Assembly: GCF_054482595.1 (NCBI RefSeq)
Contig: NZ_CM137008.1
Length of the DNA stretch: 64,000 bases
Reading direction: 5' to 3' (one strand)
The notes below the pieces were generated by a model, which worked only from the letters and a program-made list of their open reading frames with translations, searched no databases and had not been told where the DNA came from. Below, one piece after another: positions 10,725 to 15,310 of the stretch; the stretch's first letter is position 1, and every line of letters starts with the position of its first letter. The translations under genes and the position numbers were made by a program.

Positions 10725-12206
10725 CTACGCTAATCCCAGGCGCTGAAACTGCTCTGGCGGCGCATCATTATCTTTCATCAACTGAATCAGCAACGCGATC
10801 ATCCGGGACTCGATCACATCATCATGAATCGGATGTAGCTGCTGCGGATCGTTTTGCAGATCAAACAGCAAATGACCAAACTGATTCAACCCCTTATATT
10901 TTTCCTGTGCCGGGATGCGTAATACCTGTAACCCTTTGGTAAAACGAAACGGTGGGGCCAGCGATAAAGCCCGCATCTCATCCACCGGATAGCGGCTGTT
11001 CATTTTGCAGGACATCAACGTGTAGTTGGCAATATCATCCTCACGCCCCGGCAGCGCTGCACGCATATAGACAAAACGCCCATCGGTTACGTTAACATGA
11101 CCACTGAAGACACCAAACATCGCCGAGCTGCGTACTGGTTCATCGTGACTGACCGTTTTCGCCAGCGGTTGCCCCTGCACATCGGGCGGCACTGGCTGTT
11201 GAAAAAAGTCATACAACGTTGGCGCCCAGTCGATCATTTGTACCAGTGCCTGTCGCCGCTCTCCTTTTACACCACTGCGCGGGTCCCAGATAAACAACGG
11301 ATTATTGGCAACTTCGTTGTAATAAGGCATCTGGTTTTTCGCCCACCAGCCATGCTCACCGAGTAAAAAGCCGTGGTCAGTGCCGACAATCAGCATGGTA
11401 TCTCGCCACAGATCGTGCTCATCCATCAGGTCGAGAATGCGCCCCAGGTTGCGATCGCACATCGACACCAACGAACGATACCGGCAACGGATGTGCTCCA
11501 CGGCCTCGTCGCTTTCCTGCACCCGGCCACGCGGCCAGTCATAATGCGGTCCATCCCAGTTATCTTCATACAAGGAAAGATACTCTTCCGTTGTGTGAAA
11601 CGGCTCGTGCGGATCAAACGTTTCGACCTGCAATAACCAGTTATCTTCCGCGTGATTTTTGTGGATAAAGGCACAGCCTGCATCAAACACTTTAGTTTGT
11701 GGAAAATCCGCTTCCTGCTGAATATATTCCCGGTTTGCCCAGTCATGGCGCCACAGACCAGAAACACCGCCACCGGTCTGCTTTTGCGGCACCCGTAGCA
11801 CCTCGGGAATAGGCGGTTGCGCAACGCTTGCATGCCAGTGATCGCCTTCCTGTCCGCGCACAATCTCCCACGAACTGTAGCGATTATGATAATTCCCGCC
11901 GCCATCTTCCCAGTAATGCAAATGATCGCTTATCAGGTGGGTATAGATCCCCGCCTTTTTAAGCAGCTCCGGCATGGAATCGTCAAACGGTTCTAACGGC
12001 CCCCACTCCCGATGCAGGAAGTTACATCGCCCGGTATGCAACTCCCGCCGGGCAGGCATACACGGCATACTGCCGACGTAACTGTTTTCAAAGGTGGCGG
12101 CATGAGCCGCCAGACGTTGGAAATTAGGCGCTTTGGTTAACGCATCGCCATAAGGTGGCAGATAACGTTTATTCAGACTATCGAACAGCAGAATAATCGC
12201 TCTCAT
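10725..12206 (-). CDS. Cys-type sulfatase (arylsulfatase family), predicted cytoplasmic
   Basis: 493-aa ORF; signature C-M-P-A-R-R-E-L-H-T-G-R near N-terminus; no signal peptide (starts MRAIILLFDSLNKRY); not present between artJ and rlmC in K-12. Confidence 0.85.
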   Translation of the reverse strand: MRAIILLFDSLNKRYLPPYGDALTKAPNFQRLAAHAATFENSYVGSMPCMPARRELHTGRCNFLHREWGPLEPFDDSMPELLKKAGIYTHLISDHLHYWEDGGGNYHNRYSSWEIVRGQEGDHWHASVAQPPIPEVLRVPQKQTGGGVSGLWRHDWANREYIQQEADFPQTKVFDAGCAFIHKNHAEDNWLLQVETFDPHEPFHTTEEYLSLYEDNWDGPHYDWPRGRVQESDEAVEHIRCRYRSLVSMCDRNLGRILDLMDEHDLWRDTMLIVGTDHGFLLGEHGWWAKNQMPYYNEVANNPLFIWDPRSGVKGERRQALVQMIDWAPTLYDFFQQPVPPDVQGQPLAKTVSHDEPVRSSAMFGVFSGHVNVTDGRFVYMRAALPGREDDIANYTLMSCKMNSRYPVDEMRALSLAPPFRFTKGLQVLRIPAQEKYKGLNQFGHLLFDLQNDPQQLHPIHDDVIESRMIALLIQLMKDNDAPPEQFQRLGLA

Positions 12207-12217
12207 TACGCCCTACC

Positions 12218-12538
12218 TTATTGATTAATTAAATGCGGATAATGTTGCTGAACCACTTCATAAATTTGCTGACCAATAGTTTCACCGTCCATAATATTCT
12301 CTATCGGGATCAGATATTGCCCTTGTTTCGGGTCAAGACTAACCACATCGAGTAATTTTTTGGAAATTGCAAAAATATCCGCCCAGTCGGTAAATCCTCC
12401 TACTTCACCTGCGGCGGTATGTTCCATTTCAACTTTGAAATCATATTTGGTCAGCGCTTTTTTAACGACCGTTTGTAACATAACGCTACTGCCTACACCG
12501 TAACCACAGACAAACAGAATATTAATTGTATCTTTCAT
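12218..12538 (-). CDS. PTS EIIB component, ascorbate-family (UlaB-like)
   Basis: 106 aa, N-terminal ILFVCGYGVGSS phospho-cysteine loop like UlaB/SgaB; sits between EIIC and sulfatase. Confidence 0.75.
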   Translation of the reverse strand: MKDTINILFVCGYGVGSSVMLQTVVKKALTKYDFKVEMEHTAAGEVGGFTDWADIFAISKKLLDVVSLDPKQGQYLIPIENIMDGETIGQQIYEVVQQHYPHLINQ

Positions 12539-12559
12539 TTTTAAACCCTTAATATTTAA

Positions 12560-13903
12560 TTAACCCGCGTAAGGACCAAGATGGAATGTTGCAGCGATAA
12601 ATTTCAGAACTTCACAAATAGCAGGCCATACGGTTGCCCAGTCAAATATTCCTGTCCAGCCGACGCCATTTTCAGCAAGCCCGGTTAACGGAATAGCCCA
12701 CACCGTACCGAAGGTCTGAATAATACCCAGCAAGAACGTACAGATAATTACGGAACGGTATCCGCCCATGCGGTTTGCTAATACGCCAATTGGACCGCCA
12801 GAGAAAAACAGAGGTACAAAGCCAGGCAATACCATAATTGGGCTGTGAACCAGTAATAAGATCCCCATCGAAAAAATGGTGCCAAAAGTACAGAAGACGA
12901 AGCCTAACGTTGCGGCATTGGGTGAAAAAGGCAACAGCGCGGCGACATCGACGGCGGGAATGGCATTAGGAATAAAGCGATCCTGCCAGCCTTTAAACGA
13001 ACCGTTAATTTCGCCCACCATCATGCGCACACCCTGCAGCAGAATGACCATATACATGGAGAACTGTAAGCCAAGGTTGATGATATAGATGTACCAGGGC
13101 TTGCCTTTCGCCATTAACTGGACATTATCGATACCCGTTGATAGCAAGAAACCACCGACAAACAGCGTCATCACAATGGCGATAGCCGTTACGTTATGGT
13201 TAAAAATCGCCAGCCACCCGGGGAGTTTCAGGTTTTCAGCATCGTGCTTTTCGGGGTCACCAAATTTATGGGCGAATTTGGAGAAAAACCACAATCCCAA
13301 CATCTGGTTATGAGCAATGGTAAAACCAGCATCTTTGGTAACTTTGGCAATGGGCTTAACAATGAGCGTGGTGGAGAACGCCCAGAATACACCCGTTAAT
13401 ATTCCGGCAATAATAATGGATGTAGTCCAGCTAAAACCCAGCCAAAAGACAATCAACCATAATACCGCCTGAGAATGTGAAACACCGGTATTCCCTGTCA
13501 AAAATATCCCTTTGGCACCAGTATACCGACCAAATAATACCAGCAGCAGGTTGGTAAAAAACGCCAGTACAAATACATACCCGACATAACCAAAATTATC
13601 CCCCAATGCAATTTGCGTTGCCGCTTTCATTGCGTAGGAATCCATTAAATATCCGTGAACACCATAGGCTTTACTTACGGCTTCTGCTACCGGTTTAAAT
13701 GTTGCGGAAAACTGGAAACCACCAAATAACACCATCATTAATCCCACCATGGCGCTGACCATGCCGGTAATAATTTTTATTGGCGATTTCTTATCAAGGG
13801 CATAACCAATACCCACCAGCAAACCAATTAAAATTGCCGGTTCAGTTAAAAACGTTTGAATAACATCTATGAATTTGGCAAACATCGTCGGAACGCCCTC
13901 CAT
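12560..13903 (-). CDS. PTS EIIC component, ascorbate-family (UlaA/SgaT-like)
   Basis: 447-aa polytopic ORF; shared UlaA blocks KLPGW, GVRM, PGF.P.FFS; alternative start at 13885 (MFAKF). Confidence 0.8.
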   Translation of the reverse strand: MEGVPTMFAKFIDVIQTFLTEPAILIGLLVGIGYALDKKSPIKIITGMVSAMVGLMMVLFGGFQFSATFKPVAEAVSKAYGVHGYLMDSYAMKAATQIALGDNFGYVGYVFVLAFFTNLLLVLFGRYTGAKGIFLTGNTGVSHSQAVLWLIVFWLGFSWTTSIIIAGILTGVFWAFSTTLIVKPIAKVTKDAGFTIAHNQMLGLWFFSKFAHKFGDPEKHDAENLKLPGWLAIFNHNVTAIAIVMTLFVGGFLLSTGIDNVQLMAKGKPWYIYIINLGLQFSMYMVILLQGVRMMVGEINGSFKGWQDRFIPNAIPAVDVAALLPFSPNAATLGFVFCTFGTIFSMGILLLVHSPIMVLPGFVPLFFSGGPIGVLANRMGGYRSVIICTFLLGIIQTFGTVWAIPLTGLAENGVGWTGIFDWATVWPAICEVLKFIAATFHLGPYAG

Positions 13904-14090
13904 AAGCGTACATTTCCGTTGTCAATGCATGAACCTTCTGCTGACGTTAATAATGTCTCAGGAAATTTTGTGTTTCGCTAAGCAATGCCTCTGTATGTAT
14001 TCGGTAAGTGCACTGTAGTAATCAAAACAGTTCAATTAAAGATCTTATTTGATTATTTGTGATTTGATTTGCAAAAATAGAGCAATATAT

Positions 14091-14132
14091 AACCGTGATC
14101 GATCGGTTATTATTAATCGATCGATCACGATT
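14091..14132. promoter_or_regulatory. GATC-dense inverted repeat upstream of PTS-sulfatase operon
   Basis: cgtgatcgatcg (14094..14105) and its reverse complement cgatcgatcacg (14118..14129) separated by 12 bp; four GATC sites. Confidence 0.5.
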
Positions 14133-14182
14133 ATTATTTTGAGTGAATAGTTGTTGCCGAAAAATTTACTGCCGTGATGTAT

Positions 14183-15310
14183 TTAAATTTTTACCAGCAG
14201 CGTCAACACTTCATAATGCGCGGTGTGAGGGAACATATCGAAAAGCTGCACCCGTTCAATGCGATAACCAGGCAGTTCTCGGATATCTTTCGCCATAGTT
14301 TGGGCGTTACAGCTGGAGTAGATAATAAAACGCGGTGCCATCGTTGAGAGATAATCACACAGCGGTTTACCAATGCCGCGGCGCGGCGGGTTAACCAGCA
14401 CCAGCTCCGGCACCTCCCCCTGAGCGGTGGCAAACTGAGTGGAGTCCAGCGCCTGAAATTGCAAACGCGTTAAGCCCAGTTCAGCGGCTGACTGCTTTGC
14501 ACAGGCAATGGCCTCTGGCGCAATTTCGATCCCGGTTAACTGCATGTCAGGCGTCGCGCAGTGTAAACCAAAGCCACCCACACCGCAGAACAGATCCCAC
14601 ATATGTGTAACCGGCAGTTGTCGTACCCAGTCGCGCGCGGTAGCGTACAGCTGGCTGGCGACCGCCGGATTAGTCTGGAAGAAACTTTGCGGACGGATCC
14701 ACAGCGGTACGTCATTAAAACGCTCTACCAGTGCCTGTTGTTCGGTCAGGTAGATCTCCGTCTCCCCTTCCATAATCGCCATATGTACCGGCTGAATATT
14801 GACGGTAATAACTTTCAGCTGCGGTAGTTGTTCGTGTAACCACGGCAACGCCTTACGCAGTTGCGCCAGCTTGGTATCAGAACGCAGTACAAAGCGCAGC
14901 ATCATGCCGCCATCACTCTGGCTTTCAGTCAGCAGAATGTATTTCAGTTCGCCACGCTTACGCGCCACGTTGTAGGGCGTTAACCCCGCTCGGGCGATAA
15001 ACGGTTTTAGCGCCGCAAAAACGGGCGCAAATGAGGCAGGATAAAGCGGGCAGTCACAAAGGTCTTCTGGTGTGCCGTCGCGATGCAGCATACCGAGCAG
15101 TGGTTTTTCAACGCTACCACTCACCACCATTTTGGCTTTATTACGAAACCCTTGTTCCGGGCCTGACACTGGCGCGCACCATTCCTCAACCGGAAAGTCG
15201 GCGAGCAGATTTTTAAGATCGGCGGTTTTAGCGGAGAGTTGCTCTGGAATCGGCTGCGTTATCCACTGACAGGAACGACAGCGACCCGCGTCGTAAAGTG
15301 CGCACTGCAT
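14183..15310 (-). CDS. rlmC: 23S rRNA (uracil747-C5)-methyltransferase
   Basis: 375-aa ORF starting [16 protein letters not shown] (Fe-S cysteines); synteny with ybjO/potI. Confidence 0.9.

Follow-up and report, generated by a model that had tools for sequence, protein, structure and literature searches.

A predicted ascorbate-family PTS permease and a cytoplasmic Cys-type sulfatase form an Escherichia coli island that may plug into the Ula regulon

How could a formylglycine-dependent sulfatase serve E. coli from the cytoplasm, when the island that encodes it carries no maturase, no PTS EIIA and no regulator? To define this locus, we compared the K-12 rlmC-artJ junction by blastn with the 64-kb window, that is, the whole stretch of DNA analyzed here. 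The comparison delimited an accessory island of 3.5 kb (10675..14189) that takes the place of a 205-bp REP-containing spacer of K-12. The island holds genes for EIIC, EIIB, and a sulfatase only, and all three open reading frames are full length. Reference sequences for EIIA, DeoR, SorC, anSME, and TauE gave no tblastn match in the 64-kb window except for a core DeoR-family gene ~18 kb from the island; when FGE was added, in a search of a set that included the window, the window again returned EIIC and EIIB only. Remnants of an EIIA, a regulator, or a maturase were found neither in the island spacers nor elsewhere in the 64-kb window. The gene content is thus established, and an earlier note that had reported the island to lack these three helpers was upheld by both the K-12 comparison and the tblastn search.

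The sulfatase gene (10725..12206, minus strand), taken from the maximal-ORF list, encodes a 493-aa protein with Pfam matches to Sulfatase PF00884 (1.2e-28) and SGSH_C. Together with an AF2 fold and invariant residues, these matches suggest a cytoplasmic Cys-type S1 (formylglycine-dependent) sulfatase. The canonical C-x-P-x-R-x(4)-T-G-R signature that had been claimed is present at residues 49–60 as C49-M-P-A-R53-R-E-L-H-T58-G59-R60 (12027..12062, minus strand). Among aligned sulfatase homologues, C49, P51, R53, and G59 show no variation, and T58 is kept in 24 of 25; the signature Cys occurs in 114/114 N-intact homologues and at 91/91 loci. D9, C49, R53, H95, H200, D277, H278, and K290 are likewise invariant in the homologue alignment, and D9, D277, H278, and K290 align with catalytic positions of 7p24 and 5g2v. 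The alignment thus spoke against a dead motif, as C49, R53, and the residues at the catalytic positions are intact. Two deviations are family-wide: Ser10 replaces the second Asp, and Asp94 stands where many sulfatases have Lys.

The AF2 model (pLDDT 85) adopts an S1 sulfatase fold, with a TM score of 0.66 to 4upl, 7p24, and 7oz8 at no more than 20% identity. A Foldseek search with this model returned 471 PDB matches at E ≤ 0.001. The 50 of these 471 matches that were listed all belong to the S1 sulfatases or to the related FGly phosphonate monoester hydrolases; the nearest solved structures among them, carbohydrate sulfatases and phosphonate monoester hydrolases, share only 14–20% identity with the island protein. 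By signature and fold, the island protein would be an S1 formylglycine-dependent sulfatase, hydrolysis itself being predicted. More than 500 species have relatives of the protein, and the subfamily is very conserved; members of its PTS-linked branch live in gut Firmicutes, Salmonella, Enterobacter, and E. coli O157:H7 genomes.

The protein has no export signal, as the earlier note had stated. An in-frame TAG lies 9 nt 5' of the sulfatase ATG, hence an N-terminal extension bearing a signal peptide is impossible. In the AF2 model, residues 2–8 are already beta-strand 1 of the sulfatase core (pLDDT block 92); this strand ends in the invariant metal ligand Asp9, whose counterpart in BT3177/7p24 lies in the DD motif. 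Direct reading of the N-terminus revealed no twin-arginine motif, and the hydrophobic run there is only six residues. Moreover, in all but one of 112 full-length homologues (111), the signature Cys lies at a distance of 49–50 residues from Met1. A cytoplasmic location is therefore established. The same note had presented a Cys-type sulfatase without an export signal as an oddity, a view that did not survive the comparison: since the entire family is cytoplasmic, and both anSME and FGE genes adjoin members of it, the combination is no paradox.

Upstream of the sulfatase gene, with 11 nt between EIIB and the sulfatase ATG, lie the genes for a 106-aa PTS EIIB (12218..12538, minus strand; PF02302, 8e-11) and a 447-aa PTS EIIC of the L-ascorbate/galactitol family (12560..13903, minus strand; PF03611, 4e-97; NF009550, 964 bits, full length). 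The active-site Cys11 of EIIB (ILFVCGYGVGSS) sits in a VCGxGxGSS context common to UlaB, to which EIIB is 28% identical; EIIC is 39% identical to UlaA. On sequence grounds, EIIC (EIIC-GAT) and the thiol-phosphorylated-type EIIB would be components of the PTS L-ascorbate family (TC 4.A.7), with the island EIIC scoring below the curated cut-offs of ascorbate IIC models. When the vitamin-C contact residues of UlaA (PMC6048161) were compared, 10 of 15 were identical or conservatively replaced in the island EIIC, and S59G, H135N, I136T, Q139S, and Q195N were changed. The sulfatase-linked EIICs as a group likewise retain 10 of the 15 contacts, and all 18 carry changes at these positions (S59G, H135N, I136A/T/S, Q139A/S, Q195N; one has H135Q), and all five go toward smaller side chains. 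A literature search by locus tag brought up LT2 STM0884, which carries the label 'ulaA' and an intragenic sigma-54 ChIP site; this search turned up no functional study.

Of 5426 complete E. coli genomes, 566 (~10%) carry the island. In 39 of 40 sampled E. coli genomes the match spans the full gene, annotated 'sulfatase', and in the remaining one it spans 83%; shortened sulfatase alleles with products of 323–378 aa (P0031, P0036, P0079) are also on record. Among E. coli, Salmonella, and Enterobacter, dN/dS was 0.02–0.06 for all three island genes with dS saturated, a range also seen for the flanking core genes, hence the island genes are under strong purifying selection. The Enterobacter module occupies another locus than that of E. 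coli. Despite this, and despite the saturated dS in the genes, about 65 bp of promoter are kept as a conserved promoter/operator block with runs invariant in the three genera (14016..14080, minus strand). Because the genes evolve like their core neighbors and this block is conserved, function appears to be kept without linked helpers.

Regulation of the island may be approached through this block. It contains a candidate CRP-like site, TGCAA-N6-TCACA (14058-14073, minus strand), whose half-sites are conserved in the three genera and whose spacer varies; the window contains 17 sites with two mismatches where chance predicts 26, so that the site alone is not above chance and is a candidate only. 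The island promoter and the K-12 ulaG-ulaA region share AATCAyAAATAATC and TTTTGATTA, but in 500 dinucleotide shuffles this resemblance to a UlaR operator was not significant (p = 0.09 for the 14-mer, 0.16–0.49 for longer windows). For an upstream riboswitch or leader RNA, a match to STnc550 was sub-threshold (19.6 bits vs a gathering score of 48). A terminator-like hairpin of ~16–17 bp directly 3' of the rlmC stop (14094..14129, minus strand; –25.7 kcal/mol, z = –6.6) is kept in Salmonella with a compensatory change, and is probably the rlmC terminator or insulator at the upstream edge of the island. Folding of both strands placed a bidirectional terminator hairpin where the sulfatase and artJ genes converge (10682..10715; –27.7 kcal/mol with z = –8.5 on one strand, –29.2 kcal/mol with z = –7.5 on the other).

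Next, we considered the same cassette in other taxa. All 18 sulfatases that are 60–87% identical to the E. coli protein directly follow an EIIC and an EIIB of the ascorbate family, as do none of the 72 that are 52–58% identical, and a genome scan set the PTS-linked and non-PTS sulfatase clades cleanly apart. We counted helper genes at 15 PTS-clade loci, all outside Enterobacteria. A UlaC-like EIIA was found at 12 of these, two of them as sulfatase::EIIA fusions, whereas the island and the 64-kb window have no cognate EIIA (PF00359). The cassette EIIAs score best with the ascorbate IIA (UlaC) family NF007694 and are 35–40% identical to UlaC. A DeoR or SorC regulator accompanies 14 of the 15 loci, a maturase lies within 10 kb at five (anSME at three, FGE at two), and a TauE exporter occurs at two, within complete cassettes; arylsulfotransferase genes adjoin in two lineages. 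Of the 72 non-PTS loci, 28 have an anSME or FGE gene no more than 10 kb away. The architecture of the cassette in other taxa is thereby established.

The neighborhoods also point to ascorbate. Orthologues of UlaG/E/F lie within 10 kb at six of the 15 PTS-clade loci, three of which also have UlaD, and at 0/72 non-PTS loci; the other nine PTS-clade loci have no ula genes within that distance. The six ula-linked loci are independent and are spread over Bacilli, Clostridia, and Actinobacteria; in one of them the module is part of a single ula operon. In Neobacillus niacini, one strand reads EIIA-EIIC-EIIB-sulfatase-ulaG-(EIIB)-ulaD-ulaE-ulaF, with spacers of 6–100 nt or overlaps, and an FGE gene lies divergently upstream of the operon. 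Bacillus sp. SD088 has a divergent ulaR-ulaC-ulaG-D-E-F operon without an EIIC or EIIB of its own, and its Ula enzymes are 48–66% identical to their E. coli counterparts. Our search of the literature on bacterial ascorbate-sulfate use, or on sulfatases in ula operons, found nothing beyond one brief mention of a sulfatase gene 'inserted' into the ula regulon of Sebaldella (PMC3219644); neither a paper on this PTS-sulfatase system nor a description of a bacterial consumer of ascorbate-2-sulfate was found.

We postulate that the island is a working three-gene operon, a plug-in of the Ula regulon for uptake and cytoplasmic desulfation of sulfated ascorbate with helpers in trans, a reading to which we give an even chance. 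EIIC and EIIB would form an L-ascorbate-PTS-family permease that brings in and phosphorylates a sulfated ascorbate-like compound; by guilt by association, this is most likely L-ascorbate-2-sulfate, a known animal metabolite reported from plasma, serum, urine, and tissue metabolomes. The cytoplasmic formylglycine sulfatase would then cleave off the sulfate ester, and the product, L-ascorbate-6-phosphate, would enter the chromosomal UlaG/D/E/F pathway as its substrate and would also, as inducer, release UlaR. Phosphotransfer would come in trans from EI/HPr and the EIIA UlaC, formylglycine formation from the anSME homologues AslB/YdeM or the elusive Cys-type system of E. coli, and transcriptional control from transcription factors of the host that act at the conserved promoter block. 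The helper genes that relatives carry would have been lost from the E. coli island, their roles probably borrowed from the chromosomal ascorbate regulon. Points against this reading are the nine PTS-clade loci that have no ula genes nearby, the low identity to the nearest solved structures, the chance-level UlaR-operator and CRP-like matches, and the family-wide Ser10 and Asp94.

The earlier note had proposed such a dependence on chromosomal factors. It fits all computed data and stands on firmer ground with the cassettes of relatives, their UlaC-like EIIAs, the near-universal ulaC, and purifying selection. The presence of the host factors is established: ulaC occurs in 5421/5426 complete E. 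coli genomes, and the core genome has two anSME homologues, AslB (5425/5426) and YdeM (5334/5426), the latter 34–37% identical over its full length to anSMEs inside complete cassettes. The Cys-type maturation activity of E. coli named by that note stays a candidate but, given AslB and YdeM, it is not the sole one. Against supply by UlaC, UlaC is itself repressed by UlaR, hence start-up would rest on basal expression. In a passage citing Benjdia 2007, the E. coli machinery for Cys-type sulfatases was called 'elusive', and the choline sulfatase of E. meliloti (6fny) remained unmodified in E. coli (PMC6189696), therefore maturation of the island enzyme is not to be assumed.

The same architecture and trans dependencies could serve another sulfated substrate, a carbohydrate or a polyol (such as a sulfated monosaccharide released from host glycans), whose desulfated phosphate ester would enter central metabolism and bypass Ula. 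The best matches in sequence and structure are indeed S1_11 carbohydrate sulfatases (the GlcNAc-6-sulfatases 7p24 and 5g2v), five UlaA contact residues are altered, the nine of 15 PTS-clade cassettes without catabolic genes are as expected with a central-metabolite product, and the coupling of a cellobiose-type PTS to a sulfatase, a maturase, and TauE in S. pneumoniae is a precedent (PMC3283741). Nevertheless, six independent loci tie the module to ulaG/E/F, once within an operon, and the EIIC is of the ascorbate branch and retains most vitamin-C contacts. 6-O-sulfated hexoses would, moreover, be excluded by PTS phosphorylation at O6. We regard this alternative as rather unlikely. It is clearly less probable that the sulfate ester is imported as a source of sulfur, under sulfate-starvation regulators, instead of carbon. 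The E. coli island has no carbon-catabolic gene, and sulfate starvation induces many bacterial cytoplasmic Cys-type sulfatases, for example, Pseudomonas AtsA. However, relatives of the module sit in ula operons, the regulators of complete cassettes are of the sugar-phosphate DeoR/SorC type, and TauE in these cassettes implies that surplus sulfate is expelled rather than hoarded.

Two further readings question the activity itself. In vivo, the enzyme might use its formylglycine as a phosphatase or as a phosphonate/phosphodiester hydrolase, with the phosphorylated PTS product as substrate, given its matches to phosphonate monoester hydrolases (4upk, 2vqr, 2w8s, PehA), a weak Phosphodiest match, the shared Asp-His metal pair, and Asp94 in place of Lys. 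We consider this very unlikely: the TauE/SafE (sulfite-sulfate exporter family) gene within two complete cassettes argues for cytoplasmic sulfate release, arylsulfotransferase genes adjoin in two lineages, and dephosphorylation of a PTS product would squander the phosphoenolpyruvate spent on uptake. Least credible, and in our view highly improbable, is an inert remnant that has lost EIIA, regulator, and maturase, neither transports nor hydrolyzes, and is drifting to loss, which would explain its presence in just 10% of E. coli. Purifying selection equal to that on flanking core genes (dN/dS 0.02–0.06 in three genes and three genera), three full-length reading frames, the full-gene match in 39 of 40 sampled genomes, and a promoter block kept even at a different module locus all run counter to this, although every helper gene is missing, occurrence is patchy (566/5426), and some alleles are truncated (P0031, P0036, and P0079, 323–378 aa).

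Returning to the plug-in reading, the island EIIC and EIIB share their PTS family with the E. coli Ula system, and relatives of the module lie within ula operons. Unlike Ula, the island has no EIIA, regulator, or catabolic genes, adds a sulfatase, has five smaller pocket residues, and its promoter gave no significant UlaR-operator match to the K-12 ulaG-ulaA region. An accessory island of S. pneumoniae with a ROK regulator, a cellobiose-type PTS, a sulfatase, a sulfatase-modifying factor, and TauE (substrate unknown; PMC3283741) also couples a PTS to a sulfatase and, in its maturase and TauE-family exporter, shares the architecture of the complete cassettes L097 and L099. By contrast, its PTS is of the lactose/cellobiose and not the ascorbate type, its regulator is of another type, and the E. 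coli island lacks a regulator, maturase, TauE, and EIIA. The E. meliloti choline sulfatase (6fny) and phosphonate monoester hydrolases (2vqr, 4upk) share with the island enzyme the AP-superfamily fold, C-x-P-x-R, the Asp-His pair and, when made in E. coli, dependence on that host for formylglycine, but are only 14–20% identical to it and have no PTS linkage. The putative sulfatases AslA and YdeN, generally regarded as exported, are of the same superfamily; the gene of each adjoins that of a candidate maturase native to E. coli (AslB and YdeM, respectively), whereas the island sulfatase is cytoplasmic with no maturase linked.

These findings provide a concrete candidate substrate and pathway for an uncharacterized, very conserved sulfatase subfamily. 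More broadly, and more tentatively, it is possible that an ascorbate-family PTS and a dedicated, widespread cytoplasmic sulfatase subfamily make up an undescribed route of sulfated-vitamin-C catabolism, present in Enterobacteria, including O157:H7, as a three-gene plug-in that uses UlaC, UlaG/D/E/F, and host maturation. On the plug-in reading, the accessory module is stripped to its specific parts, and the core regulon would supply EIIA, downstream enzymes, maturase, and regulators. The Cys-type formylglycine system of E. coli has been sought since 2007 (PMC6189696). If our proposal is true, growth on sulfated ascorbate would be a native genetic selection for this elusive formylglycine-generating activity, and a direct genetic screen for it would become possible through a native cytoplasmic Cys-type sulfatase on which growth depends.

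The window has the E. coli chromosomal order artPIQMJ, three added genes, rlmC-ybjO-potIHGF, and alignment of the K-12 rlmC-artJ junction placed the island borders at 14189 and 10675, with 3.5 kb of island in place of a 205-bp REP spacer. The three closely spaced genes, all on the minus strand, encode an EIIC (13903..12560; 447 aa; Pfam EIIC-GAT, 4e-97; NCBIfam NF009550, 964 bits, full length), an EIIB (12538..12218; 106 aa; PTS_IIB, with Cys11 within ILFVCGYGVGSS), and a sulfatase (12206..10725; 493 aa; Pfam Sulfatase, 1.2e-28, plus SGSH_C), that is, members of the known S1 sulfatase and ascorbate PTS families. Non-coding features include a promoter region, a bidirectional terminator common to the sulfatase gene and artJ (10682–10715), and an upstream hairpin of ~16–17 bp directly 3' of the rlmC stop codon (14094–14129; –25.7 kcal/mol, z –6.6). 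The hairpin recurs in Salmonella, where a compensatory change has turned a G:C pair into A:T, and is missing at the Enterobacter module's other locus. It is probably an rlmC terminator supplied by the island; a palindromic protein-binding site is a possible alternative.

The island was said in the earlier note to lack a maturase, an EIIA, and a regulator, and our searches bear this out. By tblastn, EIIA, DeoR, SorC, anSME, and TauE references had no match inside the island, and their sole match in the whole 64-kb window was a core DeoR-family gene ~18 kb off; with FGE added, only EIIC and EIIB were matched around the sulfatase. The island is carried by 566 of 5426 complete E. coli genomes, O157:H7 and O145:H28 included, as two allele groups (at least 99% identity in 411 genomes, ~91% in 155). 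Truncated sulfatase products have also been recorded in a few cases (323–378 aa, one labelled as from an EHEC strain), hence some E. coli lineages may be losing the enzyme. Separately, a 599-aa pentapeptide-repeat protein (PF13599, PF00805; 3628–5427, minus strand) is encoded beside ybjP/artP in a low-GC stretch (~3000–6000); this 32–33% GC segment between core genes of ~50% GC looks like a separate horizontal acquisition.

Residues 49–60 of the sulfatase are CMPARRELHTGR, exactly the Cys-type signature read earlier. The enzyme had also been singled out for lacking an export signal. The absence itself stands: with ORFs taken at maximal length, an in-frame TAG 9 nt 5' of the ATG leaves no possible N-terminal extension, and in an AlphaFold model of good confidence (mean pLDDT 85, pTM 0.90, first block pLDDT 92) residues 2–8 already form strand beta1 of the catalytic core. 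Strand beta1 ends in the invariant Asp9, aligned to the metal-binding DD motif of 7p24, a solved S1_11 sulfatase. What does not stand is the anomaly, since such a start is the norm across the family. The formylglycine position is Cys in 114/114 N-intact homologues and 91/91 genomic loci, and of 112 full-length homologues 111 have this Cys 49–50 residues from Met1. Together with the N-terminal start, this makes the whole family cytoplasmic and Cys-type. No solved structure was closer than 20% identity to the sulfatase. Ser10 (codon 12179–12177; conserved in the family, Thr in 3/25 sequences, Asp in 7p24) and Asp94 (codon 11927–11925; invariant in the family, Lys in the aligned 7p24) stand where many sulfatases have Asp and Lys. 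Since both are kept throughout the family, a role in the subfamily's specificity is more probable than damage.

Relatives at 52–66% identity occur in more than 513 species, and this large, unusually conserved family splits cleanly into two clades. In the PTS clade (60–87% identity to the E. coli protein), EIIC-GAT and EIIB genes lie immediately 5' of the sulfatase gene in 18/18 loci, whereas PTS genes were found in 0/72 loci of the non-PTS clade (52–58% identity; Paenibacillus, Actinobacteria, Chloroflexi, and others), 28 of which have a maturase gene (9 anSME, 19 FGE) no more than 10 kb away. Among the 15 PTS-clade loci outside Enterobacteria, 14 carry a DeoR or SorC regulator, 12 an EIIA (PF00359), five a maturase, and two (L097, L099) a TauE/SafE exporter, L099 having the fullest cassette (EIIA-EIIC-EIIB-sulfatase-SorC-anSME-TauE). 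The genes listed as missing from the island are thus genuine cassette members in other taxa. All three enterobacterial versions of the module lack EIIA, regulator, maturase, and TauE; the module sits at rlmC/artJ in both E. coli and Salmonella and elsewhere in Enterobacter. Two natural fusion proteins, P0082 (L003 8001–9908) and P0044 (635 and 643 aa), carry EIIA as a C-terminal domain of the sulfatase and so tie the enzyme to the phosphotransfer chain in Rosetta-stone fashion. Maturases are FGE-type in aerobic Bacilli (L015, L019) and anSME in MAG cassettes (L014, L097, L099), so the subfamily is served by either maturation system. PF05935 arylsulfate sulfotransferase genes adjoin the module in two unrelated lineages, Enterobacter (L008 2466–3881) and Lachnospiraceae (L011 12515–14383; same contig as L016), the latter locus also holding a second EIIC/EIIB/EIIA set and additional regulators; such neighbours hint at a broader theme around sulfate esters.

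Orthologues of ula catabolic genes lie within 10 kb in 6/15 PTS-clade loci vs 0/72 non-PTS loci. Each of the six encodes UlaG, UlaE, and UlaF; three also encode UlaD. Neobacillus niacini has, on one strand and with spacers of 6–100 nt or overlaps, EIIA-EIIC-EIIB-sulfatase-ulaG-(second EIIB)-ulaD-ulaE-ulaF, and a divergent FGE gene upstream (L015 6682–7629; 7e-80). In a Clostridium MAG (L021) the order is ulaG-EIIA-EIIC-EIIB-sulfatase-x-ulaF-ulaE, where x denotes a protein of 345 aa without a Pfam match (6290–7327); no UlaD was detected in this operon, and x may catalyse the UlaD step instead. Bacillus sp. SD088 has a divergent ulaR-ulaC-ulaG-ulaD-ulaE-ulaF operon without its own EIIC or EIIB, whose enzymes are 48–66% identical to E. 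coli UlaF, UlaE, UlaD, and UlaG.

The transporter points the same way. Island EIIC and EIIB are 39% and 28% identical to UlaA and UlaB, and cassette EIIAs are 35–40% identical to UlaC, with ascorbate IIA as the best-scoring model. Fifteen UlaA positions are described as contacting vitamin C or its O3 (PMC6048161), and we compared them across 18 sulfatase-linked EIICs. G58, S/T86, Y87, H194, G286, R288, D314, I/V358, F362, and M/I410 are kept; S59G, H135N (Q in one), I136A/T/S, Q139A/S, and Q195N are changed in 18/18, each to a smaller side chain. Replacing contact residues of UlaA by alanine or serine cripples its ascorbate binding (PMC6048161). With these contacts kept and every change to a smaller side chain, the pocket looks like an ascorbate pocket widened on one side.

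Candidate host factors are core E. coli genes: among 5426 complete genomes, ulaC is present in 5421, aslB in 5425, and ydeM in 5334, and YdeM is 34–37% identical, over its full length, to anSMEs inside complete cassettes. E. coli modifies Cys-type sulfatases only, by machinery that has stayed elusive (PMC6189696, citing Benjdia et al. 2007). When a choline sulfatase of this type from another organism was made in E. coli, it was left unmodified (PMC6189696), so maturation of the island enzyme is not to be presumed. In pairwise comparisons of E. coli, Salmonella, and Enterobacter, at saturated dS (1.5–2.8) and with the E. coli-Salmonella EIIB pair not computable, dN/dS was 0.019–0.032 for EIIC, 0.038–0.057 for EIIB, and 0.044–0.059 for the sulfatase, vs 0.019–0.090 for the core genes that flank the island (rlmC, artJ, and ybjO). 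The ~65 bp 5' of EIIC (14016–14080) share long invariant runs across the three genera, despite the different locus in Enterobacter. From these sequence comparisons, the module and its own cis-regulatory region have evidently long been kept functional without linked EIIA, regulator, or maturase. Within this block, neither a resemblance to UlaR operators nor a CRP-like site was above chance on its own; Rfam gave no family match. We consider it very likely that the island encodes a functional PTS-coupled cytoplasmic sulfatase dependent on factors in trans.

The PTS adds its phosphate at O6, and in the naturally occurring sulfate ester of ascorbate the sulfate is at position 2. On this chemistry, the most economical reading is that L-ascorbate-2-sulfate would be taken up as its 6-phosphate via EIIC/EIIB and then desulfated by the cytoplasmic sulfatase to L-ascorbate-6-phosphate. 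The TauE genes of complete cassettes are compatible with sulfate release in the cytoplasm. As ascorbate-6-phosphate is the UlaR inducer (PMC5934670, PMC3219644), the island would induce its own EIIA and downstream pathway. We give the full mechanism an even chance, and ascorbate-2-sulfate as the substrate is a tentative assignment, rated slightly below even.

A precedent exists in S. pneumoniae, where a PTS of a different family accompanies an intracellular sulfatase, a maturase, and TauE, substrate unknown (PMC3283741), and a 2011 survey shows, uncommented, a sulfatase 'inserted' in one ula regulon (PMC3219644). Our literature search found no account in which this subfamily is coupled to an ascorbate-type PTS or sits within ula operons, and none of the reduced enterobacterial module. 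The raw observation is ordinary annotation. The follow-up leads to a specific pathway that can be tested and might offer genetic access to the elusive formylglycine system of E. coli.
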